The notes: generated by a model from the sequence alone, not told the origin. A DNA stretch of 64,000 bases from an uncultured Clostridium sp. (GCA_946541575.1 CAMNJQ010000059.1:21857-85856), one strand, 5' to 3'. Shown: positions 12,009 through 45,676, counted from the first letter of the stretch. Translations and numbers: made by a program.

Positions 12009-12505
12009 ATCATTCCTTCTATTAAATTCAATTCAATTTTTTTGTTTTCTAAATCAACATTAAGAATAAAATCTTCATGATATGGTATCATAGTAACCTT
12101 ATCATTTATTACTGCTTCAATAATTTTATTCTTAGGATTAATTTGTCTAATTGCAACGACATGACCTACTTCCTTATTATTAAAAATAACACTCAAATTG
12201 ATTAAATCTTCATCTAAGAACTCTTTATCACCTAAATTCAAATCATTTTTCTTAATATAAACATTTTTATTTAGAAATATTAATACTTCATTAATATTAT
12301 CATATCCATAAAGAGTTATCATCTCAAATATTTTATGGTGCCTATAAGATTTTATCATCTCTTCTTTTTTCTCATCACCAATATATATTTTTCTATTTTC
12401 TAAAAATACTTTATTCTTATATTTAAAGTTACTTAAAAGTCTAAGTTCACCTTTAATACCATGAGTATTAACAATCTTGCCAATATAAATGTATTCTTCT
12501 TCCAT
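12005..12505 (-). CDS. rimM: 16S rRNA processing protein RimM
   Basis: IGKIVNTHGIKGELRL plus a PRC-barrel C-terminus. The 4-nt overlap with trmD matches the conserved operon. Confidence 0.85.
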   Translation of the reverse strand: MEEEYIYIGKIVNTHGIKGELRLLSNFKYKNKVFLENRKIYIGDEKKEEMIKSYRHHKIFEMITLYGYDNINEVLIFLNKNVYIKKNDLNLGDKEFLDEDLINLSVIFNNKEVGHVVAIRQINPKNKIIEAVINDKVTMIPYHEDFILNVDLENKKIELNLIEGMI

Positions 12506-21400: not shown

Positions 21401-21555
21401 AAGTTATTAAAAGATGCTTCTTCCAATTCTTCTGCATTATCAGATTTATCAATTAATTCTATAGACTTTATTATTACATTTTTGGAATTATCTTCAGCCA
21501 ATACTGAAATTGGTAAAATAATTAAAAAGCATAAAAACAATAACAACTTTTTCAT
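18430..21555 (-). CDS. large surface protein with DUF285/BspA-type leucine-rich repeats
   Basis: Signal peptide MKKLLLFLCFLIILPISVLA. Many ~26-aa repeats of the form DLSSFDTSNV.NM..MF. See findings for the internal TM pair. Confidence 0.8.
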   Translation of the reverse strand: MKKLLLFLCFLIILPISVLAEDNSKNVIIKSIELIDKSDNAEELEEASFNNLDVVLNIKLYDINDYVKYKLVVNNNSSDDLEINNDISSNNEYIDYKIEVEDSDVVKKGKESILYLTVTYKNEAPKEAYRSAKIESNTSVTLKLFSEDLSVPDTLKNMSKTIFVVLIIIMVLGILFYRRNNKFVKLSILLLIGIISIPNIKAALLFNININSNVVISKVKENLCMFDGELVQGSEYVNGQYTYRYMQENGSSDWTNITTDGWGVRLTNPTSTEDITTKLCSKINDKPVVSMSYMFNNSQTKNIDLSSFDTSNVINMVGMFYGVNKVEELDLSSFDTSNVINLNMMFHNMTNIKSLDLRYFDTSSVLELNALFYNDNNLLEVNMDNFDFSNLSNSGGGHFYNTTSLKKISARNWIIPESFIHWVSRNWAGNNSPIEEIDVTGWDLSRTKDIQGLFADSRSLKTIIGLDTWDTSNITNMSQLFYNCNNISELDLGSFDLSKIVTNGLNQIITNTTKLAKIKTPKINSSSETIQLSETYSDENNNFYTSITSSTENQIWIEAITMFYPGQQFNNLVSNKSNVISFKRTNVEPSDLSQTTIVSLENSTYPIYLWEDNGSLFVYSQANVIYLHPNSSYMFSNFTNASSIDLNGISSFFVNDMSYMFNYCTNIESLDLSMFNTSNVTRFSYMFYKMNNLRDLNLSNFDFSNYNNGYGLTGELFGGDNESLKNLNVSNAKFGKYMVFTFYYTRNVETINLTGVDTSLVEDMNQAFYQLTKLKEINLSDFDTENVTDMSNLFNGCSSLKKINLNGLDIRKVQTFKGMISNCSSLEELELSNLDFSNYEKAAFLFNMDNGYCNRTIKKLNLENSIFSPDSQDMFCGSYEEINLKNVNTSHVTKMDYMFYDIPNVRSLDFSSFDTSNVKSMYYMFKYSNMIENLDLSYFDLSSIDPLGNGVYGMLLGINNAKRIDLSGLDLSYVLIDNRSLGLHINDNYLEELVTPKNLNIGDFNDISISKRMYAKGDTVGITSITKDTPTSTIYKDHVWN

Positions 21556-21661: not shown

Positions 21662-22492
21662 TTATTTATATTTTCCTATTTCCTTTCTTAAATATTTATA
21701 TCCATAAGAATCTATTCCATAATTAGACATGATAGCTCCCCTATTGCCATCTTTATTAATCATTAATTCTTCTATTACTTTCTTTATATCTTCTTTTGAT
21801 TTAACTTTATCAATAAGAGCCAAAGTTCCTTCCATAGAAGAAAGCTGTATAACACAATCTCTTGTAAAATCAGTTATGTCTTCTTCTTTCTCCTCACAAA
21901 GTTTCATAAATCTTTCAGCTTTAATATTATCTAAACTACTACAATCAGCAGTTCTTCTAAAATCTTCAAAATCATTATAATCGTCATAAGCCATTATATA
22001 ATCTTTTGTGTAACCCTTTAACTCATTTAAATGCTTTAAGCTAAAATCTTCTTCTTTATTTGCTTCTTTCATATACAAATACTCTAAATATAAAGGCAAA
22101 GTATCATCATATTCATTAGGTATATAAAAACTAGAATCATTAAAATCAGGACTATAGCTTGATAAAAGCATTCCCATATAAAACACTAATTCCCTTTTAA
22201 ACTCATTTTTTGGCTTATGAGAAGGAAATTTAATAAATCTCTCTTCTTCAAAAGAATCAGGAACTTGAGTCAAAGTGTATTTTAAAAAGTTACTCTTCAT
22301 TATTTTAATCTTCTTGCTTGTAAGAAACTCAATTGCTTTATCAGGTAAATAAACTTCAATATGTTCTGGAGTAACATCTATTTCATCCCATGAACTTAAA
22401 CTATTATCCTTTTTATACTTAGGTAAATTAGATTCTTTTAATTCTTTTGAAACATTATAAACATCAAATTTCTTCCCAAATACTCTACTCAT
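21662..22492 (-). CDS. paralog P1 of the six-gene family, HExxH-degenerate
   Basis: Starts MSRVFGKKFDVYNVSKEL and ends IDSYGYKYLRKEI. KRELVFYMG aligns to SHELGHIP of P5. EYDDTLPLYLEYL aligns to EYSEGLPIFMEYL. Confidence 0.7.
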   Translation of the reverse strand: MSRVFGKKFDVYNVSKELKESNLPKYKKDNSLSSWDEIDVTPEHIEVYLPDKAIEFLTSKKIKIMKSNFLKYTLTQVPDSFEEERFIKFPSHKPKNEFKRELVFYMGMLLSSYSPDFNDSSFYIPNEYDDTLPLYLEYLYMKEANKEEDFSLKHLNELKGYTKDYIMAYDDYNDFEDFRRTADCSSLDNIKAERFMKLCEEKEEDITDFTRDCVIQLSSMEGTLALIDKVKSKEDIKKVIEELMINKDGNRGAIMSNYGIDSYGYKYLRKEIGKYK

Positions 22493-22493
22493 A

Positions 22494-23321
22494 TTATTTT
22501 CTCCTCATATCTATTTCTTTTCTTAATCTCTTAAAACCATAAGAATCAATACCAATACTATTAATAATTGCTTGTCTATTGTTATCTTGATTTAATATTA
22601 AATCATTTAATAGCTCTCTTATACTATTTTTATCTAAATTCCTATCTATAAGCTGTAAAACAGCATCTAAAGAAGAAATAGGCATTAAATTTTCTAATGT
22701 GACATTCAAAAACTGTGACTCAGTTTTATTAAATTCTTCATTTTCTTTACTATTTTCATCATAATCATATAAAAATAATTCTCTATTTTTATCTGAAAAT
22801 CTAATATCTTGAAAATTTTTATAAGATTTTGCATATCTTTTAGCATTATATTTTAGTTCATTAATATGTTTAATACTGAAAATATCATCTTTTCCAACTT
22901 CTTTTAAATATAAATATTCTAAAATTAAACTAATTACATTTGAATATTCACTTGGAATATCATTATCTGTATATTTTTTATCCTTATTTACTGAAGATAA
23001 CATTTCACCTAAAAAGAAAACTAATTCCCTTTTATATTCTTCTATAGCATGTATTCTAGAAAAATACATTGTTGGTTCTTCTTTATCCGAAAGAAGATAA
23101 GCTGATTTAATAACAAATGGAGAATTAACTATTCTAATAGGATTATTTTCAATTATCTTTAAAGCACTATCAGGTAAATAAAATTCAATTTTTGAAGGAC
23201 AATCTATAACTTCATCCCAAGAAGTCTTGGTATTATCTTTTTTATAATCAAGTACATTTAAATCATTTAAATATCTTGAAAAAGAATATACATCTAAACT
23301 TTTACCATATAATCTACTCAT
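22494..23321 (-). CDS. paralog P2, HExxH-degenerate
   Basis: Start set at MSRLYGKSLDVY (23321), 4 nt after the P3 stop. Contains KRELVFFLGE and ends IDSYGFKRLRKEI. Confidence 0.7.
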   Translation of the reverse strand: MSRLYGKSLDVYSFSRYLNDLNVLDYKKDNTKTSWDEVIDCPSKIEFYLPDSALKIIENNPIRIVNSPFVIKSAYLLSDKEEPTMYFSRIHAIEEYKRELVFFLGEMLSSVNKDKKYTDNDIPSEYSNVISLILEYLYLKEVGKDDIFSIKHINELKYNAKRYAKSYKNFQDIRFSDKNRELFLYDYDENSKENEEFNKTESQFLNVTLENLMPISSLDAVLQLIDRNLDKNSIRELLNDLILNQDNNRQAIINSIGIDSYGFKRLRKEIDMRRK

Positions 23322-23325
23322 AAAA

Positions 23326-24150
23326 CTACCTTTTTCTAACATTATCTATTTCTTTTTTTAATCTCTTAAATCCAAATGTTTCTATTCCTTTATGCTTCAA
23401 AATTTCTTCTCTATTATGTTCAGGATTAGATATTAATTCATCTAATAAATTTTTATATTCATCGACATTATTAAACCTATCAATGATTTGTAATGATGCA
23501 TCCATTGATGAAAGTGGTACCAAACTTTGTAACGTTTTATATAAAATAGCTTTCATATTAGAATTATCATATTTTTCAATTCTATCATCACTACCAAATA
23601 TTCTATCTTCATTTTTAGCTTCAATAAATTTTTGATATGAATCATATATCTTAACAAAACTTTTAGAATTGGATAATAATTCATGAAGATACTTAAGTGA
23701 AAAATTAGATTCATTGTTATTTTCCTTATTATATAAATAATTAAGTATTAATGGAATTACATCATGATATTCACATGGAATAGTAAAATCATCAGGCATC
23801 TTATCAGGTGAATAAGAAGCAAAAATTCTACCCAAAAAGAAGATAACATCATTTTGATATTCCCTTATTATCTTACTTTTAGGAAAATACATAACAGGAT
23901 CTTCAGAACTATCTTTTGGTAAAAAAGTTAATGGTTTCCTAATAAGTATAGATTTTGATAAAACTACAGGTGTATTAGTAATTATTTCTATTGCTTTATC
24001 AGGTAAATACTTTTCTATATATGAAGGTGTATTCTCAACTTCTTCAAGAGATATTTTAGTCTTATCATAATTATAATCTATTAATTCTTTTTCCAATAAA
24101 TATTTAGAAACATTATATACATCATCACTTCTACCATATAATCTACTCAT
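23326..24150 (-). CDS. paralog P3, HExxH-degenerate
   Basis: Starts MSRLYGRSDDVYNVSKYL. Contains YQNDVIFFLGR and ends IETFGFKRLKKEI. AGGAG RBS lies inside the end of P4. Confidence 0.7.
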   Translation of the reverse strand: MSRLYGRSDDVYNVSKYLLEKELIDYNYDKTKISLEEVENTPSYIEKYLPDKAIEIITNTPVVLSKSILIRKPLTFLPKDSSEDPVMYFPKSKIIREYQNDVIFFLGRIFASYSPDKMPDDFTIPCEYHDVIPLILNYLYNKENNNESNFSLKYLHELLSNSKSFVKIYDSYQKFIEAKNEDRIFGSDDRIEKYDNSNMKAILYKTLQSLVPLSSMDASLQIIDRFNNVDEYKNLLDELISNPEHNREEILKHKGIETFGFKRLKKEIDNVRKR

Positions 24151-24152
24151 AA

Positions 24153-24908
24153 CTATCTCCTAATCTCTTTTCTAAGTCTTTTAAATCCATAAGTATCCAT
24201 ATTCATCTTATTTATAACTTCTTCTCTATTATGATTTTCATTATTAATAAGTTCTTTGATTAATAGTTTTAATTTATCTTCATCATTAACAATTTCATCA
24301 GCAATTTGTAATGTCATGTCAAAAGATGATAGTGGTACTAGAAACAATAAACTATTTTTTAAAAATCTTTCTTCATTAAAAACTTCAGGATAATTATGAA
24401 AATTTTCATATATTTTTACATATTCTTTAGCATTCAACTTTAAATCTTGTAAATGTTTATCACTAAATCTATCTTCTTTTCCTATTTCTTTTAAAAATAA
24501 ATATTCAAGAGTTAATGGTAATACATCACTATATTGACATCTTATATCAAAATCATCTGGAACATAGTCAAGATTTATTCTTCTTAATAAATCACCAGCG
24601 AAATATACTAGGTCTCTACGATACTCTTCTTTCATTTTCTTAGTAGGAAATATAATAGTATTTTTCTCTTCCCCATATCCACTATAAATAGTATCTTTAA
24701 TAAATAAATTCCATGCAACTTCAATTTGAGCATCTTTTAAAAATAATGCTGCATCTCTTGGAATAAATTTCTCAATTATTTCTAAAGATTTATCCATTTT
24801 CTCAAATGAAATAATTGCATTATCTCTCTCATATTTTTTATTATAGTTTTCTAATAAATCTTTAGAAATACTATATATGTCATTTGTTCTACCATACAAT
24901 CTACTCAT
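24153..24908 (-). CDS. paralog P4, HExxH-degenerate
   Basis: Start set at MSRLYGRTNDIY (24908), directly after the P5 stop. Contains YRRDLVYFAGD and ends MDTYGFKRLRKEI. Confidence 0.7.
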   Translation of the reverse strand: MSRLYGRTNDIYSISKDLLENYNKKYERDNAIISFEKMDKSLEIIEKFIPRDAALFLKDAQIEVAWNLFIKDTIYSGYGEEKNTIIFPTKKMKEEYRRDLVYFAGDLLRRINLDYVPDDFDIRCQYSDVLPLTLEYLFLKEIGKEDRFSDKHLQDLKLNAKEYVKIYENFHNYPEVFNEERFLKNSLLFLVPLSSFDMTLQIADEIVNDEDKLKLLIKELINNENHNREEVINKMNMDTYGFKRLRKEIRR

Positions 24909-24909
24909 A

Positions 24910-25764
24910 TTACCTCGATAATCTCTTACATTCTTCAATTACTCTTTCGCATCCGTCAGTATCGATAGATAGATTTTCAGCTGTTTCAATCATTGATTGT
25001 CCTTTAATCACATATTCTATCTCATCACCAACAGCTTTTCTATCATCTTTCATTCTATCAACAAGTTGTAAAGCAAATTCAAGTGATTCTAAATACTTAT
25101 AATAGTCTGCAAAAAGTTGCATATGATAAAGCCTAATATCATCATTTGGATTTTCAATATTCTTATATACATTCATAATATCACGAGCACCAGATTGTTC
25201 TATTGGAAGACGTTCAAACAAAAAATAATCTAGTGCATCTTCTGGATCATTGTGCCTTTTAAGTTCAGATAAATATTCCATAAAAATTGGTAATCCTTCG
25301 CTATATTCTAAATATGAATTTCTAATTAGATCAAGTTCTGGAATATGTCCAAGTTCGTGAGAATAACTAAGCTGATCAGTTACACACAAATCTTTTTTAG
25401 GTAAATGCATAATATAGTGCATAGAACCATTAATTTGTTTATCATACTCTAAATAAGCATCACCTGTTGCTTTAGTCTTATCTCTAACTACTTTAATTCC
25501 TTCTACTTTATCTTCAAAAAAATCTATAATAAAATTATTTTCAAAAATTTTTAAAGATCTAATGGAAAATCCTTTCAAGCTATCTTCTTTAATAGGGATT
25601 TTTCCATCTTTTGAAGTAGGAACATCATATCTAGTAATTTTTCTACATAGTCTAAAAATATCTTTTCTATTTGATTCATCATAAGAATTCTTAAAAGTCA
25701 AATTAAGTCTTTTTAAATCCAAATCAAACTTAGCTATTTCCAGTTTAAAATCTTGTCCTCTCAT
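24910..25764 (-). CDS. paralog P5, putative gluzincin metallopeptidase (HELGH intact)
   Basis: HELGH is encoded at 25345-25359, with conserved E in FMEYL 22 residues after the second His. GGGGGG RBS upstream. The C-terminus LQLVDRMKDD...IDTDGCERVIEECKRL aligns with P1-P4. Confidence 0.7.
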   Translation of the reverse strand: MRGQDFKLEIAKFDLDLKRLNLTFKNSYDESNRKDIFRLCRKITRYDVPTSKDGKIPIKEDSLKGFSIRSLKIFENNFIIDFFEDKVEGIKVVRDKTKATGDAYLEYDKQINGSMHYIMHLPKKDLCVTDQLSYSHELGHIPELDLIRNSYLEYSEGLPIFMEYLSELKRHNDPEDALDYFLFERLPIEQSGARDIMNVYKNIENPNDDIRLYHMQLFADYYKYLESLEFALQLVDRMKDDRKAVGDEIEYVIKGQSMIETAENLSIDTDGCERVIEECKRLSR

Positions 25765-25824
25765 ATTAACCCCCCCACTAAAAAAAATATTATAAAATTA
25801 AATAATAAAATATACAAATAATTT

Positions 25825-26619
25825 TTATAATTTTAATATTTTATTACATTGAGATGTATCGATTTCTAGTGTTTCTTTAATTTCTCTTAAAGTTTTTTCA
25901 CCATAAACAAATTTATCAATCTCACTATTAACTTTATTTTGATCATCTTTTGCTCTATCTATAAGTTGTAATGCATATTCAAAAGACTTAATGTATTTAT
26001 ATGATTCAATCATGCCATATATGTAGTACTGATCAACATAAGAGCCATTATTCTTTATACGTTTTTTTTGTTGAAAATAACCTTGAGCTTCTTTTTTGAT
26101 TGCATCAAGCCTAATATCAATAAAATTTTTATAAGCATTTTTTTTATCAAGAGATAAATTTGCCAAATACTCAAAATATATTGGAATGGTTTCTAAATAC
26201 TCATAGTACTCTAATCCATTTTTTGAAGGATTAATAAAAGATGGAATATGCCCAAATTCATGAGAAGTAGCAATGAAATCAGTATCTTTAAAATCTCTAT
26301 TAGTAACATAAACAATTTGTTTTGAAGAATTACCATATATTTGAGCATCACCATTATAAAAATCGCCCTTTTTTATTTGAGTCTTAGGAATTCTTTTCAT
26401 ATAAAAAGAAACAGTATCTTTTCCTAGCAAAGAAATTTGATCTAAAAATACTTCTTTTATCTTAGAGAAATTAAATGATGTTGGTTTATACTTTATAGAT
26501 TTTAAACCACATATTTGTTTGCACACATCATAAGGATCATCTTCACATGGCATAAAAATGGAATTATATAATTCTACATGTCTTTTAAATCCTAAAACCT
26601 CTTCTTTATAATTAATCAT
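25825..26619 (-). CDS. paralog P6, putative gluzincin metallopeptidase (HEFGH intact)
   Basis: HEFGH is encoded at 26248-26262, followed by IPIYFEYL. Start set at MINYKEEV (26619) after a GGGGGT RBS. It lies 68 nt downstream of frr. Confidence 0.7.
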   Translation of the reverse strand: MINYKEEVLGFKRHVELYNSIFMPCEDDPYDVCKQICGLKSIKYKPTSFNFSKIKEVFLDQISLLGKDTVSFYMKRIPKTQIKKGDFYNGDAQIYGNSSKQIVYVTNRDFKDTDFIATSHEFGHIPSFINPSKNGLEYYEYLETIPIYFEYLANLSLDKKNAYKNFIDIRLDAIKKEAQGYFQQKKRIKNNGSYVDQYYIYGMIESYKYIKSFEYALQLIDRAKDDQNKVNSEIDKFVYGEKTLREIKETLEIDTSQCNKILKL

Positions 26620-26686
26620 AATACTACCCCCATTTATTCCGAGTATTATACCACAATTCTTAATATTTTTCAAATAAAAAGAAGAA

Positions 26687-35300: not shown

Positions 35301-36233
35301 CTAACCTCCATCAGTATCAGTGCTAATACTTTTAAAATTAATTTCTTCTCCATTAGATGTAGCAACAATAGTACCCATAATACTTGTATTAAATATTTCA
35401 GAATTAATTCTTTTCAATTTATTAATTACAACATCATGAGGATGACCATAATCATTATTTTCACCACAAGATATTATAGCATATTTAGGCTTAACTTTAT
35501 TTAAAAAATAAGCACTTGAACTATATTTTGAACCATGATGCCCAACTTTTAATACAGTACTACTTATGTCGCTATTTAATATTTGCTTCTCTACATTACT
35601 AGAAGCATCTCCTGTAAATAAAAAAGAAACATTCCCATATGTTAATTTAATAACTATTGATGTATCATTTAAATCTTCTTTATCAGAACCTACATATATA
35701 ATTTTAACCTCTGAGTTACCAAGCCTCAATTTAGTACCTACCTTTGGAGTTTTAAATGCAATATTCTTTTTATCTAATGCATCCAACACTTCATAAAAAG
35801 TTTGAGTAGAAGTTATACAATCAGGCATATAAAAATTACTTACTTTAAAATTATTAATTATATCATCCATGCCACCAATATGATCTTCATGAGCATGAGT
35901 ACCTACTAAATATTTAAACTCACTAATACCTAATGTTTTAAAATAATTAACTAATTTTACACCATCATTATTGTTTCCAGCATCTATTAGCATATACTCA
36001 TCTTGAGACTTAATCAAAATACTATCAGCTTGTCCAACATCTAAAAAGAAAACCATTAAATCATCAGTTAATATAATTGACTCATTATCATTAATAATAT
36101 TAACATTTTCAACATTAACAAAAATTGCATCTTTTAATTTTTGAAAAAATTTATCATCAACAAAATAAGACAAAGCAAATATAATAAAAATTAAAAAGAT
36201 TCTTACAATATATTTTTTTGTTTTCTTCTTCAT
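35301..36233 (-). CDS. membrane-anchored/secreted MBL-fold hydrolase, ComEC C-terminal-domain paralog
   Basis: TM anchor. VGQADSILI, GTHAHEDHIGG, FTGDAS, LKVGHHGSKYSSS and NDYGHPH match the ComEC-type metallo-beta-lactamase domain. Confidence 0.8.
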   Translation of the reverse strand: MKKKTKKYIVRIFLIFIIFALSYFVDDKFFQKLKDAIFVNVENVNIINDNESIILTDDLMVFFLDVGQADSILIKSQDEYMLIDAGNNNDGVKLVNYFKTLGISEFKYLVGTHAHEDHIGGMDDIINNFKVSNFYMPDCITSTQTFYEVLDALDKKNIAFKTPKVGTKLRLGNSEVKIIYVGSDKEDLNDTSIVIKLTYGNVSFLFTGDASSNVEKQILNSDISSTVLKVGHHGSKYSSSAYFLNKVKPKYAIISCGENNDYGHPHDVVINKLKRINSEIFNTSIMGTIVATSNGEEINFKSISTDTDGG

Positions 36234-38362: not shown

Positions 38363-39013
38363 TTACTTTATTCTTTTAATATTACTCCAATCTCTTGCAT
38401 CATTTAAAATTTTTTCAGAATCAGCTAATAGTTTTGATGGATATTTAACATACTCTAAGATTTCTTCATTAGAATAATTTTCTAACATATACTTTCCTAT
38501 TGTAAATGCAATATGATAGTTTTGAGATAAAGATATAAAACTATTTATTTCTTCATTTGTTGCATTTATCACTACTTTTGTAAACATTTCTGGATTGCCT
38601 AAATTAGTTGCTAAAGCCTCCCAAAACCATATGATAGTTTTATTTGAGTGTTCCAATTCACTTTCTTGTTGGCAAATATGTACAAATTCATGTAATATTG
38701 TACTTTTTAACTCTTCAAGAGTCATATTAGCATGATAAGCTGTTTTACGAGCTTCTTTTATTGATAATAAATTAATGTTTCCATCATTTGTATCAGCACG
38801 CATATAATCATAATATTTACCAAATTGTTCAATATGCTTTTTATATAATTCTAAATCATCATATATAACTATTTTCCTCTTTTTGATAAGTGAATCTAAT
38901 TTAAAAAAAGACATAATATCATTTGATTTAGATTCTAAATAATTTACTACTTCTGGAATGTAAGAAATACTTTCATCATAATCAACTATAAAATTTTTCT
39001 TTTCTAATAACAT
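38363..39013 (-). CDS. cargo 5: putative MA-clan (gluzincin) metallopeptidase
   Basis: ILHEFVHICQ (HExxH) followed by IWFWEALATNLG, which resembles the W..EGLA third-ligand helix. ATG at 39013 follows GTGAT. Confidence 0.55.
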   Translation of the reverse strand: MLLEKKNFIVDYDESISYIPEVVNYLESKSNDIMSFFKLDSLIKKRKIVIYDDLELYKKHIEQFGKYYDYMRADTNDGNINLLSIKEARKTAYHANMTLEELKSTILHEFVHICQQESELEHSNKTIIWFWEALATNLGNPEMFTKVVINATNEEINSFISLSQNYHIAFTIGKYMLENYSNEEILEYVKYPSKLLADSEKILNDARDWSNIKRIK

Positions 39014-39059
39014 TAAAATCACTTCCTACAAAAACTATATCTCTAACAATTATTCTATA

Positions 39060-39140
39060 ATCATTTTTTTCAAATAGTTTAAAATTATTTGCTAAATAAA
39101 TTGTATCACCAATATGGTCAAAGTCTCTACTTTGTAACAT
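39060..39140 (-). pseudogene. decayed relic of a comEC 3' cassette (copy E)
   Basis: Complement translates MLQSRDFDHIGDTIYLANNFKLFEK, compared with comEC THGDYDHVGEAINLVNNFKVEK. A degenerate version of the cassette terminator hairpin lies next to it (39141-39163). Confidence 0.4.
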
Positions 39141-39163
39141 AGAATTACAATTTGATAGTTTCT

Positions 39164-39640
39164 TTAATACTTTTTAATTAGTTTCTTTATTTTTGGCTTA
39201 AGATCATATATTTCTTCTTGCATTACTTCTCCAGATTCACTAATTGATAATTCTGGAATTACAATACCAGTTTCAAGTTCAATCCAATCAGCAAGCAACC
39301 TTCTATGACAAAAGTGCTCTTTGCTTATTTCCAATCCAGGTAACTCATGACAAAGTAATATTATTTCTTCTCCAAATTTTTGCTTTAAAGTATTCATTAA
39401 TTCAAATGGATTTAAATCTTTTAATCTTAAATTATAAAATTCATATATATACCAATTGATTAATTCATCTTCTAATAAATTATCTGGATTTTGTTCATAA
39501 TACTGCCATAAATATAATCTTGGAGACATTTTCTTATATGCACTACCATAAAATCCCCAGGCATTACCACCATCTCCAGTAATTGAAACTAAATTTCCAT
39601 TTTTTGCATTAGCATAACAGCTTGTTCCTTTTATAATCAT
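39164..39640 (-). CDS. cargo 4: DUF488-like protein
   Basis: IILLCHELPG...FCHRRLLADWIELETGIVIPEL matches the DUF488 C-terminal pattern LLC.E...CHR.l.A.W. The N-terminal half is atypical, so this is tentative. Confidence 0.45.
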   Translation of the reverse strand: MIIKGTSCYANAKNGNLVSITGDGGNAWGFYGSAYKKMSPRLYLWQYYEQNPDNLLEDELINWYIYEFYNLRLKDLNPFELMNTLKQKFGEEIILLCHELPGLEISKEHFCHRRLLADWIELETGIVIPELSISESGEVMQEEIYDLKPKIKKLIKKY

Positions 39641-39762
39641 CAAAATCACTCACAAATTAATAAATATTATATCATAAACTTATTCTTTTAATTTAAAACT
39701 TTAATTAATTTCCTTTCTAAATAATTATATTTTTTATTCTATTCAATTCATCATCTCCCATT

Positions 39763-40353
39763 CTATAGACTACAAGTATCTATTTTTAATTTATTATTTT
39801 TAATCTTAAACAAAATACTTCCATCTTTATCTGTTCTATATACTTTAGAATCTTTTATGTTTTCTAATACTTCTTTATTTGGATGACCATACTTATTATT
39901 TTTACCAACACTAATAACTGAATAATCTGGATTAATATTATCTATAAACTCAATACTCAAACTTGTCTTACTTCCATGATGTCCTACTTTTAAAATATCT
40001 ACATCATGTAAAGTATATTGTTTTAATATTTCTTTTTCAGTAGTCATAGATGCATCTCCCATAAACATAAATCTATAACCACCAAGTTTTGTATATATAA
40101 CATTACTATTATCGTTCTCATTATCATATTCTTTTGTTTAAAGAAAATATAATTTATTTTTATCTATATTTAGTTCTTTAACACATGAATAATACTTTAT
40201 ATTTTTCTTATTTAATACTTTAATTAACTCTTTTTCTAAATCATTAAATTCTCCACAATTAAAGATAACTTTTTCTACCTTAAAATTATTAACTAAGTTA
40301 ATAGCTTCTCCCATGTTGGCATAATCTCCATGTGGTGACATACGTTTATGCAT
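39763..40353 (-). pseudogene. orphan comEC 3' cassette, copy C, with an in-frame nonsense codon
   Basis: Single frame reads SPHGDYANMGEAINLVNNFKVEKVIFNCGEFNDLEKEL...KLYFL*TKEYDNENDNSNVIYTKLGGYRFMFMGDAS...KIDTCSL. TAA at 40138-40140 replaces the Gln codon of comEC. Confidence 0.85.
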
Positions 40354-40368
40354 ACGAATTTAGAAATT

Positions 40369-40397
40369 AAAAAAAGAACTATCAAATAGATAATTCT
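40369..40397 (-). terminator. terminator of cargo 3 / cassette junction hairpin
   Basis: Minus strand AGAATTATC-n5-GATAGTTCT plus T7. The same hairpin sequence recurs at 42916-42943. Confidence 0.75.
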
Positions 40398-41274
40398 AAC
40401 GCTTATTTCTTGTAATCATATCACTATCCGTAGGAACTTTAGAGATAAAGCTAAATAAAGTATTTGGCAAATCACTTATAGGTATTTCAATAATACCTGT
40501 AGCTCCAACACTATCTTGATTAACTTTATTAATTCCTGGTAAATTGTTTACCATATCAACATTACATATTTTTGGAATAAAGTATTCAATCCTAGCTATT
40601 TGTAAATTTAAAGTTATTTCTATCGTTAGGGCATGCCCTCTATCTCTAACCATCATCAATAACTTTCTTTCATTAATAGCAACCATATCAGTCCATCCAA
40701 CATCTAAATCATTGGGAAATAGCGCTAATAATTGTTCAAATGCAGATACTTTAACCCCTCTTAACGATATTGGATATTTATAATCATTTTCCTTTTTATC
40801 AATCAATGGAATAGATTGCAAAATTTGTTCATTATTTAAAATAAATGAATGCATAAAATGTAATATTTCATTAATTGTCTTTGCATTTTTTGCAGAAGAA
40901 ACACTGCCAAAGGTATATCCAACACATTCTTTCTTTACAGCATTAATAAAATCTAATTCCATATTACTGACAAAATTTTTATAGAACAAACGTAATTTAT
41001 CAATATCATAACCACATGAATAAAAATTATTTTTAATAATATTTTCCATCTCAGTTATTTTGCTCATGATTTGTGATTCAAATCCAAAAATATCTGCAGT
41101 TATACATTTTAATTCACTAAATATATATATTAAGGAATCATTAACACTATTCGAATATTTTTCGACATCAGCATATAAATTATCACTTGGGGGAGCTATA
41201 TCAAGCATTTCTTTTTTTATTTTAAAATCAACTTCGAAAAAATGCTGTAGCTTTAACAATTTTACATCTACCAT
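40396..41274 (-). CDS. cargo 3: hypothetical 292-aa protein
   Basis: ATG at 41274 follows AAAGGTGTGAT. The earlier track ATG lies inside the -10 box. No motif recognised. Confidence 0.55.
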   Translation of the reverse strand: MVDVKLLKLQHFFEVDFKIKKEMLDIAPPSDNLYADVEKYSNSVNDSLIYIFSELKCITADIFGFESQIMSKITEMENIIKNNFYSCGYDIDKLRLFYKNFVSNMELDFINAVKKECVGYTFGSVSSAKNAKTINEILHFMHSFILNNEQILQSIPLIDKKENDYKYPISLRGVKVSAFEQLLALFPNDLDVGWTDMVAINERKLLMMVRDRGHALTIEITLNLQIARIEYFIPKICNVDMVNNLPGINKVNQDSVGATGIIEIPISDLPNTLFSFISKVPTDSDMITRNKR

Positions 41275-41340
41275 ATTATTATCACACCTTTTGTTCATTA
41301 TATCATATTTTTTATTCTATTCAATTCATCATCTCCCATT

Positions 41341-41883
41341 CTATGAACTACAAGTCTCTATTTTCAATTTATTATTTTTGATTTTAAACATAATACTTCC
41401 ATCTTTATCTGTTCTGTATATTTTTGAATCATTTAAATTGTCTAATACTTCTTTATTTGGATGACCATAACGATTATTTTTGCCTACACTAATAATGGAA
41501 TACTTAGCATCTATAAACTCTTTACTACTGCTTGTCTTTGAACCATGATGCCCTACTTTTAAGACATCTATATCTGATAAATTATATTTATCTAATATTT
41601 CTTTTTCAGTAGCAGTGCTTGCATCTCCCATAAACATAAATTTATAGTTATTTATTTCTGTATAAATAACATTTGAATTATCATTTTCATTATCATATTC
41701 TTTTGTTTGTAAAAAATATAATTTATTTTTATCTATATTTAATTCTTTAATACACGAATAATACTTTATTTTCTTTTTATCTAATACATTTATTAGTTCT
41801 TTTTCTAAATCGTTATATTCTCCACAATTAAATATAACTTTATCTGCCTTAAAACTATTAACTAAATTAATAGCTTCTCCCAT
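41341..41883 (-). pseudogene. orphan comEC 3' cassette, copy B (reading frame intact, lacks the comEC 5' part)
   Basis: MGEAINLVNSFKADKVIFNCGEYNDLEKEL...VGHHGSKTSSSKEFID...NNRYGHPNKEVL...KIETCSS is identical to the comEC C-terminus at most positions by eye. Homology continues upstream through HGDYDH to 41901. A TAA at 41908-41910 closes the frame. Confidence 0.85.
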
Positions 41884-41958
41884 ATGATCATAATCCCCAT
41901 GTGGTGATTATCTGTTATGCACACTAATTTAAGACAAAAGAAAAGAACTACAAAGGTC

Positions 41959-42702
41959 CTAATTTTTAATAAAATTCAATGTAACTTTCAATGCTTCTTT
42001 CATGTGCTCATCATTATGAAACCCATGATCTGCGCCATCAATTAAATATAATTTAGCATTTTTACATTTCTTGCTAGTATTAACAGAAGATTTGTATGAT
42101 ACATACGGATCAGACGTACCATGCACAAACAATAATGGAATATCTATTTTTTGCAATCTCTTGTAAGTAGTGTATTTTCGTTCATCTTTAAAATATTCAT
42201 AACTTAATTTCCAGCCATTCTCAATTGGATAATAACCTTGTTTTTTTGCAATTTTTTCTTTCTTGCTTGGAATATTAAATAATCCTCTTCCATAATCTAT
42301 TGCTGGATACCATAATATGATTTTTTTGATATCATATTTATTTAAATCAACATTAGAAACAATTCTTCCCCCCATAGAACAACCTATCAAAATAAAATTT
42401 TTATAATTATATTTTTTATTTAACATATCTAATGTATCATGAAGATTCCTTACCATATTGGACACAGTATATTCATTATAACTTCCATCTGATTCACCAC
42501 ACCCAACAAAATCAAATCTAAAATTATTAATACTATTTTTAGTCAGTTCCTCAGATATTTTAGTAGTAGGTCTAGAATCTTTGCTACTGGTTCTTGCATG
42601 ACATATAACTACTATCTCATAATTTTCGTTTGTTTTATTAATAACACCACATAGTTTTAAATTATTGTATGTTGGATAAAATATTTTTTCTTCATTTATC
42701 AT
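41959..42702 (-). CDS. cargo 2: alpha/beta hydrolase
   Basis: GCSMGG nucleophile elbow, HGTSDPYV (Asp), GADHGF (His). ATG at 42702 follows GGATGTGAT. Confidence 0.75.
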   Translation of the reverse strand: MINEEKIFYPTYNNLKLCGVINKTNENYEIVVICHARTSSKDSRPTTKISEELTKNSINNFRFDFVGCGESDGSYNEYTVSNMVRNLHDTLDMLNKKYNYKNFILIGCSMGGRIVSNVDLNKYDIKKIILWYPAIDYGRGLFNIPSKKEKIAKKQGYYPIENGWKLSYEYFKDERKYTTYKRLQKIDIPLLFVHGTSDPYVSYKSSVNTSKKCKNAKLYLIDGADHGFHNDEHMKEALKVTLNFIKN

Positions 42703-42744
42703 ACTTATCACATCCTGTAATTATTATATCATAATTCTTCGTGA

Positions 42745-42910
42745 TTACGGACCGCAAGCCTCAATTATTAATTTATTACTTTTTATTTTAAACATAATAC
42801 TTCCATCTATATCTGTTCTATATATTTTTGAAGTTTCTAAATTATTTAACGCTTCTTTATTAGAATGTCCATATCTATTATTTTGGCCAACTGCTATTGA
42901 GTAGTTAGTA
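42745..42910 (-). pseudogene. orphan comEC 3' cassette, copy D (5'-truncated, last ~55 codons)
   Basis: Not in ORF track. Complement translates NYSIAVGQNNRYGHSNKEALNNLETSKIYRTDIDGSIMFKIKSNKLIIEACGP*, compared with comEC RYSVISVGKNNRYGHPNKEALDNLRESKIYRTDEDGSIMFKIKNNELKIRTCSP*. Confidence 0.8.
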
Positions 42911-42915
42911 CATAT

Positions 42916-42943
42916 AAAAAAAGAACTATCATATGATAATTCT
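42916..42943 (-). terminator. terminator of cargo 1 / cassette junction hairpin
   Basis: Minus strand AGAATTATC-ATATG-GATAGTTCT plus a T-run. Confidence 0.75.
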
Positions 42944-43608
42944 TATACAATACTATTATTATTTAAATACTTTGTAATATATTCTATGCATTCATTAAAT
43001 ATCTTATCCAATTCTTTCTTATCAGTTATTTTATAATTATAAAGACATATTTTTGAAAAGAAATTAACCTTACCTAAATCTTTATTAGAAGATATTATAT
43101 AATTATTCAGTTTTTCTTTATTAAATGTTGCTTCATCAATATCAATTACATTGTTTACACACTTTAAATTTTTAAATTTGTAAATGTATCCATGATTAAT
43201 TAACCATTTATCATAAATATTCATTTCCCTATGCTTTAAATCTTTTCGCGCTTTTCCATCTAGAAGTTTTTTCCTACCTTTTAAATACATGCCTATACCA
43301 TTATCATTTTTATCATAGATATAAAAATGTTTAAAAAAATATTCATTATAAAATCTATCTGTTAATATATGTATAAGATACCCAAGCATTATTGGATTAT
43401 CAAGCCTATTCTTATATTTTTGTATAAATTTATCTGGATTGGCTAGACCTTCTAAATCTTTTTCACCAGATTGAAAATGAGCAACTGAATGATCTCTTCC
43501 CTCACAAATATCTGGAAGAACACTTCCTAACATTATTGAATCTAAATCCATTTTAATTTTATCATTAACTTTCTTAGCAATTGCTAAATGAATTTTATGA
43601 GTTGGCAT
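42943..43608 (-). CDS. cargo 1: hypothetical, possibly zinc-dependent phospholipase C / P1-nuclease-like fold
   Basis: MPTHKIHLAIAKKV...GSVLPDI...HSVAHF...GYLIHILTDRF gives a His/Asp pattern reminiscent of that family. Tentative. Confidence 0.4.
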   Translation of the reverse strand: MPTHKIHLAIAKKVNDKIKMDLDSIMLGSVLPDICEGRDHSVAHFQSGEKDLEGLANPDKFIQKYKNRLDNPIMLGYLIHILTDRFYNEYFFKHFYIYDKNDNGIGMYLKGRKKLLDGKARKDLKHREMNIYDKWLINHGYIYKFKNLKCVNNVIDIDEATFNKEKLNNYIISSNKDLGKVNFFSKICLYNYKITDKKELDKIFNECIEYITKYLNNNSIV

Positions 43609-43648
43609 ATAAACACATCCTATAATTATTATATCATATTACTCCTTT

Positions 43649-45676
43649 CTATGGACTACATGTTCTTATCTTTAATTCATTATTTTTAATTTTAAACATA
43701 ATACTGCCATCCTCGTCTGTTCTATATATTTTTGATTCTCTTAAATTATCTAATGCCTCTTTATTTGGATGTCCATATCTATTATTCTTTCCAACTGATA
43801 TAACACTATATCTTGGATTTATTTCATCAATAAATTCTTTACTACTACTTGTTCTTGATCCATGATGTCCTACTTTTAAAATATCTACATCATGTAAAGT
43901 ATATTGTTTTAATATTTCTTTTTCAGTAATACTTGATGCATCTCCCATAAACATAAATCTATAACCACCAAGCTCAGTATAAATAACATTAGAATTATCA
44001 TTTTCATTATCATAAACTTTCGTTTGTAAGAAATATAATTTGTTTTCATTTATATTTAATTCTTTAATACATGAATAATATTTAATTTTCTTTTTATCTA
44101 ACACTTTTATTAATTCTTTTTCTAAATCATTAAATTCGCCACAATTAAAGATAACTTTCTCTACTTTAAAATTATTAACTAAGTTAATAGCTTCTCCCAC
44201 ATGATCGTAATCCCCATGTGTAATAATTAAATAATCGAGGTTTCTAATACCAAATGACTTAAATAATGGAATAGAATTATTATAAAGAATATCACGATTA
44301 CTTATACCGCCAGTATCAATGAGAATATTTGTTCTTCTATTATGAATTAAAATTGAATCACCCTGTCCAACATCTAATATCAATACATAATTACTTAGAA
44401 AAATATCGTTATAATTATAATGAATGCATAAAATAATTAAAAAAAATACTAATAATTTTTTATTGTAAAAAATGAAAGAATAGATTATCAAATAATATAT
44501 TACAACAACAGCAATTGATGGCTTTATAAAAATTAAAGAAGAATTAATACTTCCAAACCATAATGATAAACATTCTAAAATCTTTATAAAAATTATAAAG
44601 AATTCATCAAATAATGGAAACGCTAAAGTAATAATAGAAAAAGGAAAGACTATAAAAGAAACATAAGGAACTAAAATAGAATTAAAAAGAAATGATAAGA
44701 CATTTAACTCACTATAACTATAAATATTAAGTGGAATTGAAAAAATAAAAGATAAAAAAGATATATAAATTATTTTAACAAACATATTTTTTATTTCATT
44801 TAATTTCTTACTAGATAAAGTTAATATAGAACTTATAATAAAAGAATAATAAAAGCCAATATTATATATAGAATTTGGAACTATTATAATCACAATTAAA
44901 ATACTTATTAATAAATGCCTCTTTTTATCAAAATTCAAACCTAGAATTGCATTAATTTCTTTTAAAAGAAGTTGTACCACACATCTTAATATAGATATAC
45001 TTCCAATAAATTGATAATACAAAAAAAGAATAATAGCAAATAAAAAAGTTTTCTTAATATTATTTCGCTTATACACTAAACTTAATAAACCAACTAAAAA
45101 AGAAAGATGAGTACCTGAAATTGAAAACAAATGAATTATTCCAATTTTCTTATATATTGAAATATTATCATCATTTATTTCACTCTTATCACCTAAAATA
45201 AATGCTTTTAAATAACTATAACTTTTTAATTTATTTATTTTACTATCAACATCTCTCTTTATTTTAAGAAAAAGATTTTTACTTTCTCCAACTTTTTCAT
45301 AATTATAAATTTTTAAATTAAAAAATACATTATTCCTATTTTGATATTCCTTATAATTAAATAAATTAAAATTTCTATTATTTTCTAATTCAAATAGCAT
45401 TCCTTTTATTTTTAATTTATCTCCTATTTTTAATGAATTGTTTTCTAAATAAGAAACTAATTTTTCTCCACAATCTAACTCTAGACTATTATTATTTTTA
45501 ATATTTGTAACTACACAAGAAAAAGAAGTTTTATCAATATTAAAGATTGTGTAATTATGTACCTTATAATCTGTAAATCTAAATATAGCAAAAAATATTA
45601 AGACATAAATAATTAATTTAGACTTTAATACTATTTTTAATTTTTTCAAATAATGCGTCTCCAATTCCAGAAACAT
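43649..45676 (-). CDS. comEC: DNA internalization competence protein ComEC/Rec2 (full length)
   Basis: Multi-TM competence domain. C-terminal MBL domain with VGQGDSILI, THGDYDHVGE (HGDYDH at 44201-44218), FMGDAS, VGHHGSRTSSS and NRYGHPN. Located downstream of comEA. The track start overlaps comEA by 59 nt, so the true start may be internal. Confidence 0.9.
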   Translation of the reverse strand: MFLELETHYLKKLKIVLKSKLIIYVLIFFAIFRFTDYKVHNYTIFNIDKTSFSCVVTNIKNNNSLELDCGEKLVSYLENNSLKIGDKLKIKGMLFELENNRNFNLFNYKEYQNRNNVFFNLKIYNYEKVGESKNLFLKIKRDVDSKINKLKSYSYLKAFILGDKSEINDDNISIYKKIGIIHLFSISGTHLSFLVGLLSLVYKRNNIKKTFLFAIILFLYYQFIGSISILRCVVQLLLKEINAILGLNFDKKRHLLISILIVIIIVPNSIYNIGFYYSFIISSILTLSSKKLNEIKNMFVKIIYISFLSFIFSIPLNIYSYSELNVLSFLFNSILVPYVSFIVFPFSIITLAFPLFDEFFIIFIKILECLSLWFGSINSSLIFIKPSIAVVVIYYLIIYSFIFYNKKLLVFFLIILCIHYNYNDIFLSNYVLILDVGQGDSILIHNRRTNILIDTGGISNRDILYNNSIPLFKSFGIRNLDYLIITHGDYDHVGEAINLVNNFKVEKVIFNCGEFNDLEKELIKVLDKKKIKYYSCIKELNINENKLYFLQTKVYDNENDNSNVIYTELGGYRFMFMGDASSITEKEILKQYTLHDVDILKVGHHGSRTSSSKEFIDEINPRYSVISVGKNNRYGHPNKEALDNLRESKIYRTDEDGSIMFKIKNNELKIRTCSP

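Follow-up and report, generated by a model that had tools for sequence, protein, structure and literature searches.

What process leaves several copies of the 3' end of comEC downstream of the intact gene, each followed by a gene of another kind? We have addressed this question in a window of 64,000 nucleotides from an uncultured Clostridium sp. (the whole stretch of DNA analysed), for which a sequence-only reading had proposed that new modules, made of a comEC 3' end and a cargo gene, displaced older ones downstream. The comparison sample consisted of 80 related gut and rumen Bacilli genomes (80 loci), with 70 intact comEC genes for the analysis of identity along the gene. The proposed displacement was borne out, and the array is probably (with a probability of about 0.7) a stack of small cassettes devoid of integrase, inserted successively at two fixed points of comEC.

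The 3' end of comEC recurs downstream of the gene

The intact gene, its two insertion sites and the displaced copies (orphans) are listed below, copy A being the 3' end of the intact gene itself.

43649-45676, minus strand: intact comEC, 675 aa, with the Pfam domains Competence and Lactamase_B
44201-44227, minus strand: site 1 (attB-like), ATTATTACA-CA-TGGGGATTACGATCAT, the CA belonging to the His codon in HGDYDH
43781-43801, minus strand: site 2 in the intact copy, ATATCA-GT-TGGAAAGAATAAT, the start point of short-class copies
42745-42899, minus strand: copy D, displaced last ~50 codons of comEC, short class (blastn)
41341-41903, minus strand: copy B, displaced comEC 3' end, long class, open frame (blastn)
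39763-40334, minus strand: copy C, displaced comEC 3' end interrupted by a single in-frame TAA at 40138-40140 (blastn)
39683-39731, minus strand: 49-nt relic from the middle of a further comEC 3' copy, 82% identical to 44088-44136
39060-39163, minus strand: decayed remains of a hairpin and of an alpha-like arm (39123-39153), and relic E from the start of the comEC 3' end, a weak assignment

A blastn search of the window with the comEC 3' end (43644-44220) returned three copies, namely C (match at 39758-40334, 83.4% identity over 577 nt, E 2e-176), B (41336-41903, 82.4% over 578 nt, E 1e-167) and D (42709-42897, 78% over 189 nt, E 4e-39), all further matches being of 49 nt or less. This agreed with the recurrence noticed earlier, with B and C at 82-83% identity and D in addition, and the open frame of B and the single in-frame stop of C were also as described. 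Relic E (39060-39140) could be followed in its protein reading (DFDHIGDTIYLANNFK vs. DYDHVGEAINLVNNFK), whereas its similarity at the DNA level was weak (73% over 45 nt). The 49-nt relic at 39683-39731 was absent from the earlier list of copies and marks an almost wholly deleted unit.

Copy D was also considered as a random truncation, which was rejected: it represents a second copy class that starts at codon 144/145 of the repeated segment and has its own arm. Site 2 is the GT of a Val codon located 50 codons before the comEC stop, and the short-class orphans found in other loci all begin there.

The window comes from a metagenome assembly, where repeats may arise as artefacts. The E-values, however, went down to 1e-176, and an independent assembly contig (L083) covered window positions 49967-39333 at 99.98% identity, with A, D, B and C all included. 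Moreover, copies that are ~83% alike would be neither collapsed nor duplicated by an assembler, so that assembly duplication is unlikely, and the same architecture was present in 44 other species. The probability that the repeats reflect an artefact or chance similarity is practically negligible.

The copies are mosaic, with A resembling C in one stretch and B resembling C in another, and therefore homologous recombination acts on them; this could be the insertion route itself. The orphans could also be silent donors, as in pilS, that vary the C-terminal nuclease domain of ComEC by gene conversion, the cargo being incidental. The mosaic patterns and the open frame of copy B would suit such a role. 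Nevertheless, many orphans are truncated, interrupted by stops or reduced to relics, the C-terminal part of ComEC is 85-95% conserved at the protein level and leaves little variation to supply, and no dedicated conversion signals were seen. We regard silent donors as a very improbable explanation.

The comEC 3' end as a moving module

Among the 70 intact comEC genes, identity stepped up exactly at the His codon of HGDYDH, from 25-55% to 85-95% for amino acids and from ~45% to 62-80% at third codon positions. Such a step indicates that the 3' end of comEC is a horizontally moving module. The 5' part of the gene is inherited vertically, the last ~190 codons being part of the moving module.

Cargo genes, leaders and terminators

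43609-43648, minus strand: leader 1, with extended -10 ATGATATAAT (43628-43637, behind copy A) and AGGATGTG RBS region, running up to the cargo ATG
42943-43608, minus strand: cargo 1, 221 aa, resembling Zn-dependent phospholipase C (PF00882, E 5.5e-6, at the cut-off)
42922-42943, minus strand: terminator hairpin, then T-run (-9.0 kcal/mol, z -3.8)
42712-42744, minus strand: leader 2, with ATGATATAAT at 42723-42732 (behind copy D)
41959-42711, minus strand: cargo 2, alpha/beta hydrolase, 250 aa (Pfam Hydrolase_4, E 7.5e-20)
41297-41340, minus strand: spacer type 2 and leader 3, with ATGATATAAT at 41297-41306 (behind copy B)
40396-41298, minus strand: cargo 3, 300 aa, no Pfam family
40375-40397, minus strand: terminator hairpin, then T-run (-8.6 kcal/mol, z -4.2)
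39164-39675, minus strand: leader 4 (ATGATATAAT at 39666-39675, behind copy C) and cargo 4, DUF488-like, 161 aa (weak Pfam match)
38363-39022, minus strand: cargo 5, 219 aa, HEFVH motif, no Pfam match

The promoter motif ATGATATAAT, which had been read as following each copy, was found after A, D, B and C and was missing after E. Leaders of the type of leader 1 precede most cargo genes in the 80 loci. The reuse of one hairpin at 42922-42943 and 40375-40397 was confirmed, both sites folding well, whereas the claim of a hairpin and T-run behind every gene held for two of the five genes: the sites behind the alpha/beta hydrolase and DUF488-like genes gave no stable hairpin (z ~0). Spacer type 2 is possibly a remnant of the 3' end of yhcG, which it resembles by eye.

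Several cargo genes have relatives in cassettes elsewhere. Cargo 3 together with its hairpin and arm was 96.2% identical over 1008 nt to a locus of another species (L062), the match stopping 12 nt past the core. The family of cargo 4 is also cassette cargo in five loci (L006, L008, L011, L016 and L077), and homologues of cargo 5, which belongs to the oldest unit, are cassette cargo in L052 and L062. Overall, the cargo was diverse (112 clusters among 226 ORFs), comprising hydrolases, Fic, NUDIX, GNAT and similar proteins.

A conserved arm precedes each orphan

Each orphan is directly preceded by a conserved arm of 27-29 nt, while comEC itself has none. The window contains three arm types (alpha, alpha' and gamma).

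42887-42916, minus strand: gamma arm and site-2 junction, TATATGTACTAACTACTCA then ATAGCA-GT-TGG, 1 mismatch to the gamma consensus
41904-41930, minus strand: alpha' arm AAATTAGTGTGCATAACAGATAATCACCA, a P-type half-site before copy B
40335-40361, minus strand: alpha arm AAATTCGTATGCATAAACGTATGTCACCA before copy C, 0 mismatches to the alpha consensus

Across the 80 loci and the window we counted 28 alpha, 32 beta and 14 gamma arms, all in comEC orientation and directly before an orphan; in the other loci, the gamma consensus had 14 occurrences, invariably in this orientation. We infer that the crossover dinucleotide at site 1 is the CA of the HGDYDH His codon. Since the beta arm corresponds to the P half of a phage attP and, in an integrated copy of that phage, comEC coding sequence lies across the same CA core, the orphan junctions are attR-type scars (P|B'), and joints of this type are present at D, B, C and E. 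A search for attL (B|P') yielded none for the units of the window, the left joint of each unit being comEC-like (B' type). Likewise, no P' half-sites were detected in the window or in the 80-locus arrays, except for P|P' sites in L053 and L005. In seven contigs (L005, L053, L096, L098, L100, L106 and L107), hybrid joints, for instance P(alpha)|P'(beta) or P(beta)|P'(alpha-like), and full attP sites at cassette ends were exact at the core.

Comparable arrays and a mobile unit in related genomes

Orphans or arms were present in 44 of the 55 species loci with at least 2.5 kb of downstream sequence, with up to ~7 joints per locus. The elements lie in tandem and in direct order at one recombinase target, with repeated att-type joints, and most are without a recombinase. 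Their boundaries run from core to core. Over 70 units with different cargo had the same tight layout, in which the leader ends at the cargo ATG and the unit closes with hairpin, TTTTTCTTTG and arm. A 2.05-kb DUF488 unit is shared by two species (L008 and L006) at 95-100% identity, the flanks being unrelated, and the match between L008 and L033 began at the core in both loci.

Phages carry an attP that matches the beta arm

All 27 bases of the beta arm are identical to the P half of an attP in a phage contig (L086). This attP (ATTCGACTTACT...CCA-CA-TGG...AGTAAGTCGAAT) lies 24 nt from a gene for a 473-aa large serine recombinase with Resolvase, Recombinase and Zn_ribbon_recom domains. Five further phage contigs encode an integrase of this type (65-74% identity), and four of them keep the arrangement and the CCACATGG core. 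An attP of ~50 bp adjoining int, with imperfect dyad symmetry around the central dinucleotide, was seen in L086/L088, L089, L090, L091 and L092; P and the reverse complement of P' agreed at 17-18 of 27 positions in the phage contigs, while the window has P halves only. Phage integration at comEC was observed in L087 and L104, where attL joins the comEC coding sequence, at the CA of site 1, to P' and then int.

In phage L089, each attP half-site shares 20 of 27 positions with the alpha' arm. No phage with exactly the alpha, alpha' or gamma half-sites was found in IMG/VR, the best matches to related phage half-sites being 20/27. For the arms of the window, the link to phages is one of family resemblance, together with the alpha/beta hybrid joints in other contigs. 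The recombinase evidence concerns site 1, with none for site 2 (gamma).

As had been read from the sequence, no recombinase is encoded in cis: Pfam detected no recombinase domain in the ten proteins of the region, none was seen by eye elsewhere in the 64 kb, a tblastn search of the 80 loci with the phage integrase gave no match, and none occurred among the best 25 of the 41 Pfam families matched by 50 cargo representatives. The enzyme would therefore have to act in trans, and we infer that a phage-type serine recombinase would do so on the cassettes, because identical units occur in different species and the phage integrase family exists. Neither a trapped prophage (cassette-P|P'-int) nor a free cassette circle was seen.

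These data bear on two further explanations. With homology alone, as in Rhs/CdiA loci, transformed DNA comprising a comEC 3' end, cargo and the next comEC 3' end would be incorporated by single or double RecA crossover within the conserved comEC 3' repeats, and the arms would be passive scars of one or few ancient events. The mosaic copies A, B and C fit this explanation, and the hosts, having retained an intact comEC, may be competent. In addition, two cassettes occur in the same order in the window and in L062, which movement of multi-unit segments by homology would predict, and a module of comEC 3' end, yhcG and leader is paired with different cargo in L008 and L033, suggestive of a crossover in the leader. 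Homology does not, however, account for several distinct arm types of equal length that all end in TCACCA at the same base, for arms that equal a phage attP half-site, for P|P' hybrid joints exact at the core, or for the same CCA-NN-TGG form at two separate sites. Furthermore, in three genomes the orphans behind the same DUF488 cassette diverge from the first base past the core. We consider displacement by homology alone rather unlikely.

Alternatively, each unit could be the deletion remnant of a recombinase-bearing prophage or integrative element with a comEC 3' end. There are phages that have this P arm and encode an integrase, and one locus (L106) retains 16 nt of phage int flank beside a P' half-site, with an XRE-type gene further downstream that is phage-repressor-like by eye only. 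On the other hand, none of the phages seen has a comEC 3' end, ComEC would be truncated by their P' side, and L086 differs from the cassettes in the sequence upstream of its P arm. The more than 70 units share their tight layout and contain no phage gene fragments, and random deletion would not yield a unit 95-100% identical between species from core to core. The earlier refuting condition, a recombinase-bearing element with these same ends, applied by half: a phage with this arm and a recombinase exists, but the cassettes are compact, are conserved among species over the whole core-to-core unit, and are not decayed prophages. Ordinary decay is a quite improbable origin.

A model of stacked cassettes

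According to the stacked-cassette explanation, a unit extends from core to core and consists of a replacement comEC 3' end, often a yhcG (nuclease) or Bro-N/DinD-like gene, a leader providing a conserved promoter and RBS, one cargo gene, a terminator and the 27-29-nt arm, which is the left (P) half of an attP for a large serine recombinase. Insertion at the CA of site 1 or the GT of site 2 would join the 5' part of the host comEC to the cassette's own 3' end, and since the cassette supplies this end, comEC would stay whole. The old 3' end would be shifted downstream behind the arm, giving the attR-type junction P|B'.

The window would accordingly record five layers. The top one may be a short-class unit, with the last 50 codons of A and the PLC-like gene, and the next a long-class unit, with A from HGDYDH to site 2 (the first ~138 codons of the repeat), D and the alpha/beta hydrolase gene. 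Below these would lie B with the 300-aa gene, then C with the almost deleted unit and the DUF488-like gene, and finally E with the HExxH gene. Later gene conversion and deletions may have blurred the copies.

Recombination of attR with attB is not a reaction of canonical serine integrases. As P|B' is an attR, insertion in one step is not explained. One possible path would be an attL x attR reaction that rescues comEC after a phage or an attP-type mini-cassette has split it, the DNA in between being lost later; another would be a RecA-mediated crossover within the 570 nt of comEC homology.

More tentatively, the cassettes bearing a comEC 3' end might be competence-repair satellites that use the phage serine integrase in an excision-type attL x attR reaction, an idea that we hold to be possible but doubtful. 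Where comEC had been split by a phage or mini-cassette, a circular cassette with a P|B' joint would recombine via the phage integrase, and the yhcG or Bro-N/DinD-like gene may serve as directionality factor. In one step, comEC would be made whole again and a P|P' site left behind the cassette, and the prophage, stripped of its attL, would no longer excise and would decay. If true, the locus would serve as a serine-recombinase platform that captures genes in the manner of an integron, with the conflict of phages with natural transformation as its driving force. In agreement with the sequence-only reading, which was aware of no such architecture for comEC, we found no published description of comEC cassette arrays of this kind.

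Comparison with known systems

The array had been likened to the orphan modules of Rhs/CdiA loci and to pilS cassettes. The likeness to Rhs/CdiA lies in displaced 3' ends downstream of an expressed copy, each with a partner gene, but the analogy did not hold further. The defining feature of those loci, a toxic variable C-terminus with its cognate immunity gene, is absent: comEC is not a toxin, the cargo consists of unrelated small enzymes and not of immunity genes, and it is the cargo that varies while the gene end is conserved (85-95% at the amino acid level). Also, in contrast to both Rhs/CdiA and pilS, the junctions are not simple homology ends but carry recombinase half-sites, the arm being the left half of a phage attP.

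An integron was considered and rejected. The array shares with integrons single-gene units with recombination sites between them, entry beside a fixed platform and diverse cargo. It differs in having no adjacent integrase (none was found) and no attC hairpin sites; instead, the DNA between cassettes consists of comEC 3' copies and serine-recombinase half-sites, each unit has its own promoter and many carry a copy of the target-gene 3' end.

CIMEs and non-autonomous elements accrete beside ICEs at the 3' end of fda in Streptococcus thermophilus. As here, recombinase-less, att-bounded elements that can be moved in trans lie in tandem at a gene 3' end, although the CIME systems use tyrosine recombinases and short repeats, and their elements are larger and derived from ICEs by deletion. 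IMEs have been reviewed (PMC5704250).

Prophages with serine integrases split competence and sporulation genes, as the A118-like phage of Listeria does in comK and SPbeta in spsM (PMC3556126, PMC5499854, PMC7397523), and MGEs in comEC have been listed (PMC12378983). The phage contigs described here, with a large serine integrase beside attP and a truncated competence gene, resemble these cases. The window differs, as it contains no prophage and its cassettes restore the gene and pile up.

SCC and the composite islands of ccr-less pseudo-SCC elements occupy the 3' end of rlmH (orfX) in staphylococci. Compared with them, the replaced end is ~570 nt (or 150 nt) here vs. ~15 nt, the units measure 1-2.7 kb, each with a single cargo gene, and have their promoter leader in common, the P|B' junctions have no attL counterpart, and the related recombinases reside on phages that split the gene instead of keeping it intact. 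What the two systems have in common is the target of a large serine recombinase inside the 3' part of a housekeeping gene, an element that supplies the replaced end, and tandem accretion with repeated att-type junctions, in which many elements have no recombinase of their own and depend on one in trans.

Copies of the comEC 3′ end in the window

The comEC 3′ end was compared by blastn with the whole window, and the recurrence described by the sequence-only reading was confirmed, with copies C, B and D lying downstream of the 3′ end of the intact gene (A).

Features of the comEC array (identities from blastn with the comEC 3′ end against the window)
45676-43649, minus: comEC, Competence and Lactamase_B domains
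42709-42897, minus: copy D, 78% over 189 nt
41336-41903, minus: copy B, 82.4% over 578 nt
39758-40334, minus: copy C, 83.4% over 577 nt, E 2e-176
39683-39731: 49-nt relic, middle of a comEC 3′ copy, 82% to 44088-44136, between copy C and the DUF488 leader
39060-39140, minus: relic E, weak DNA similarity, recognisable protein-level match

Copies B, C and D of the earlier list were thus recovered by blastn and relic E at the protein level, but the list had missed the 49-nt relic, which marks one further unit, almost wholly deleted. Alignment placed the common first base of B and C at CACCA/CATGG (slash before that base), over the HGDYDH codons, preceded by ~29 nt that both share and that comEC itself does not have. 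The similarity runs past the stop codon up to the cargo start codon, with one type of spacer in A and D and another in B and C, and the ATGATATAAT motif is present after A, D, B and C, as had been read. A, B and C are mosaic relative to one another. Best matches in other loci did not discriminate whether the ~138 first codons of A's repeat and D had once been a single copy, all being ~85% identical.

An assembly artefact has a negligible probability, as A, D, B and C stand on a single contig of an independent assembly with 99.98% identity. A pilS-like role of the copies is very improbable as well, given that many of them are relics. Apart from the details noted here and below, the overall description by the sequence-only reading was correct.

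Outside the array, a stand-alone 310-aa Lactamase_B protein (35301-36233, minus) is paralogous to the C-terminal domain of ComEC, and its DNA weakly resembles the 3′ end of comEC. The protein has an N-terminal hydrophobic stretch that by eye is signal-peptide-like; in the compared locus L081, a DUF3006 gene comes next after its counterpart. Six paralogous ORFs (261-284 aa each) follow one another at 21662-26673 (minus) and resemble a tandem gene family without assigned role; HELGHIP or HEFGHIP motifs occur in the two that are read first (24910-25764 and 25825-26673). Another protein (18430-21555, minus; 1041 aa) has numerous leucine-rich-type repeats and looks by eye like a BspA-like surface protein.

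The 3′ end of comEC moves between species

We have scanned one genome per species, which gave 290 stretches encoding this ComEC C-terminal part, and studied the best 80. All 80 come from uncultured, AT-rich Bacilli of gut or rumen, labelled in their records as Bacilli, Erysipelotrichaceae, Tenericutes, Mycoplasma sp. CAG:877, Firmicutes CAG:582 or Clostridium sp. CAG:433. The N-terminal 481 residues of their ComEC are 28-39% identical to those of the window's protein, the last 194 residues 77-86%. The codon alignment of 70 intact comEC genes located this step exactly at the His codon of HGDYDH.

Identity before and after the His codon (codon alignment, 70 intact genes)
Amino acids: 25-55% before, 85-95% after
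Nucleotides: ~52% before, ~84% after
Third positions: ~45% before, 62-80% after

Since identity rises at third positions too, the comEC 3′ ends share a recent common ancestry beyond what protein-level selection alone would give, and the segment is a horizontally moving one. The look-up of conspecific strains returned just the same strain, in two assemblies, which ruled out a presence/absence comparison of units within the species. The 80 loci contain a single pair of close relatives (L054 and L061), and both contigs end just past comEC.

Orphan copies are preceded by conserved arms

Among the 55 species loci that extend 2.5 kb or more beyond comEC, 44 contain orphan copies or arms, from one to ~7 per locus. 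The orphans fall into two classes, a long one starting at the His codon (site 1) and a short one starting at codon 144/145 of the repeated part (site 2), to which copy D belongs. A conserved arm stands before every orphan.

Arm types (all in comEC orientation)
alpha arm: TTCGTATGCATAAACGTATGTCACCA, 28 occurrences
beta arm: TTCGACTTACTTTTTGACAATCACCA, 32 occurrences
gamma arm (short class): TATATGTACTAACTACTCAATACCA, 14 occurrences

Arm and copy start together form an imperfect palindrome about two central bases (..TCACCA-CA-TGGnGA.. at site 1, ..TACCA-GT-TGG.. at site 2). The window carries alpha (before C), alpha′ (B), gamma (D) and decayed alpha (E) arms. At beta junctions (e.g., 12060-12110 of related-species locus L008), arm and orphan start read TTGACA-16 nt-TATGAT, a near-consensus promoter spanning the junction and directed into the orphan copy.

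The arms are half-sites of a phage attP

The beta pattern was found in two IMG/VR phage contigs. In one of them, L086, 24 nt separate the pattern from the stop codon of a gene for a 473-aa protein (Resolvase, Recombinase and Zn_ribbon_recom domains); the pattern is part of an attP reading ATTCGACTTACT-ttttgacaatcaCCA-CA-TGGaggtatgtggtt-AGTAAGTCGAAT with perfect 12-bp inverted ends, and the consensus beta arm matches the left half of this attP in 27/27 bases. Relatives of the integrase (65-74% identity) are encoded on five further phage contigs, four of which keep the layout and the CCACATGG core unchanged with different outer sequences; the closest integrases from cultured phages are ~36% identical. 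The integrated state is seen in contigs L087 and L104, where comEC coding sequence (..L-I-I-T) is joined at the core to P′, the right attP half, followed by int. Such integration would cut ComEC to ..HGGMWLVSRIT and a stop codon.

The arms of the window match half-sites of related phages at 20/27 positions. No exact phage for its alpha, alpha′ or gamma arms was found in IMG/VR; scans with alpha and with gamma arms gave no match, and the sole hit to a looser gamma pattern, inside phage structural genes, was attributed to chance. P(alpha) is joined to P′(beta) at the core in metagenome contigs L096, L100, L106 and L107, and these joints place the alpha arms in the same system as beta. Taken together, the data show that one serine-integrase phage family integrates at the HGD codons of comEC and that the arms of the arrays are P half-sites of that family. 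Integron, IS200/IS605, group II intron and Xer/dif origins of the arms had been judged by eye and were abandoned on finding the phage attP.

Units span core to core and carry diverse cargo

The ~2.05-kb DUF488 unit consists of core, comEC 3′ end, yhcG, leader, DUF488-like gene, hairpin and beta arm, up to the next core. It is 95-100% identical between loci L008, where it directly follows the comEC 5′ part, and L006, where it comes second, behind an alpha arm; the flanks are ~45% identical upstream and 40-78% downstream. The match between L008 and L033 begins at the core in both loci, and a match of 96.2% identity between the window and L062 takes in the 300-aa cargo, its hairpin and its arm, ending 12 nt beyond the core. 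This showed that units span core to core and travel between species. Decay of full prophages is an improbable source of the arrays, as it accounts neither for the tight common layout nor for the core-to-core identity of 95-100% across species, and the phages were seen without a comEC 3′ end.

The gene directly after comEC is yhcG (YhcG_C and DUF1016_N) in 32 of 66 loci and Bro-N/DinD-like in 18; a homing-endonuclease role of yhcG was superfluous for explaining the junctions. Modules are re-assorted between units at a conserved leader (rTGATATAAT...AGGATGTGAT..ATG) that runs up to the start codon of the cargo gene. A generic scan of the region for promoters gave 58 vs. 61.7 expected from shuffled sequence, so that the assignment of a promoter to the leader is based on cross-species conservation. 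The terminator scan overlooked AT-rich hairpins. The hairpin AGAATTATC...GATAGTTCT is reused, as the sequence-only reading had it, and both copies fold well, but no fold is now found after the abhydrolase and DUF488-like genes, where one had also been claimed.

The 80 loci hold 226 cargo ORFs in 112 clusters, including Fic, transglutaminase-like, NUDIX, GNAT, S51 peptidase, DUF218, MFS, histidine phosphatase and abhydrolase types. PADLOC gave few candidate-defence matches among the cargo; the cassettes do not clearly qualify as a defence island. No recombinase is among the Pfam families listed for the cargo. The lack of one that the sequence-only reading had noted between comEC and tRNA-Arg held for the array region and, by eye, across the 64 kb.

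A second class of cassettes carries a full attP

The P′(beta) half-site is present in 13 metagenome contigs; as a rule, 50-70 nt separate it from a leader, behind which come a cargo gene, a hairpin and a further arm. These P′(beta)-started units are mini-cassettes carrying full attP.

Joints in metagenome contigs and related loci, all exact at the core (slash, joint)
L098: comEC-yhcG-cargo-hairpin-P/P′-cargo-hairpin-X/P′-...-orphan relic
L106: P(alpha)/P′(beta) plus 16 nt of phage int flank
L053: intact attP closing its single cassette
L005: P(beta)/P′(alpha-like) joint

Such P/P′ joints are what would be left by recombination of attL with a cassette attR. In L098 (6540-6573), L097 and L106 (3620-3656), P′(beta) is preceded at the core by yet another left half-site, TTTCGAyACTTAAAAAGTGG. 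Being shorter than the P arms by ~7 nt, it may have attB-type spacing or represent another site class. At ~170-300 of L101, a 166-kb metagenome contig, P′(beta) is joined to GC-rich DNA, possibly a chimeric assembly or a different-host target.

Proposed mechanism

We rate the comEC array as a case of non-autonomous elements accreting in tandem at the target of a serine recombinase. Most likely, a phage-type integrase would act in trans on the cassettes, and each insertion would fuse the 5′ part of the host comEC with the 3′ end brought in, leaving the former 3′ end behind an arm. The resulting P/B′ site (B′, right attB half) is an attR, and to our knowledge attR and attB are not recombined by canonical serine integrases. 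Two reaction routes are consistent with the data. In the first, comEC would be split by a phage or attP mini-cassette, a circle bearing a comEC 3′ end would enter attL through an excision-type reaction, and the DNA between both P arms would later be lost. In the second, a RecA-mediated crossover would occur within the 570-nt homology.

Homologous recombination acts on the array too, as shown by the mosaic copies (A, B, C) and by the re-assortment at the leader. A purely homology-driven, Rhs-like displacement is nevertheless unlikely, since it leaves the arm types and the identity with a phage attP unexplained, as well as the hybrid P/P′ joints and the presence of palindromic cores at two sites.

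Significance and comparison with known systems

ComEC is the DNA-uptake channel of naturally transformable bacteria, and competence genes are known targets of knock-out by mobile elements. Serine-integrase prophages split comK or spsM (PMC3556126, PMC5499854, PMC7397523), and insertions of mobile genetic elements in comEC are on record (PMC12378983). Cassette accretion would be the reverse, with comEC kept intact by tiny cassettes that bring a spare gene end. Across a large clade of Bacilli from gut and rumen, all uncultured, a phage integration point in comEC would serve as a landing pad where each cassette deposits a promoter-driven accessory gene, the outcome being a gene-gain hot spot (112 cargo clusters in 80 species). 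The locus is also a natural collection of related attB and attP half-sites of serine integrases and a testable instance of phage integrases exploited by recombinase-less elements. The rescue of a split comEC by the first route, if true, would be a new means for hosts or satellites to disarm prophages.

In line with the earlier suggestion that the architecture was undescribed for comEC, we found nothing in the literature searched on cassettes with a replacement comEC 3′ end or on arrays of them. The closest known systems include SCC and pseudo-SCC composite islands at rlmH, CIME accretion, the prophages in comK or spsM and integron arrays. Unusual in the comEC array are the length of the replaced gene end, the units of one gene with a promoter, the use of two sites within one gene and the clade-wide spread.
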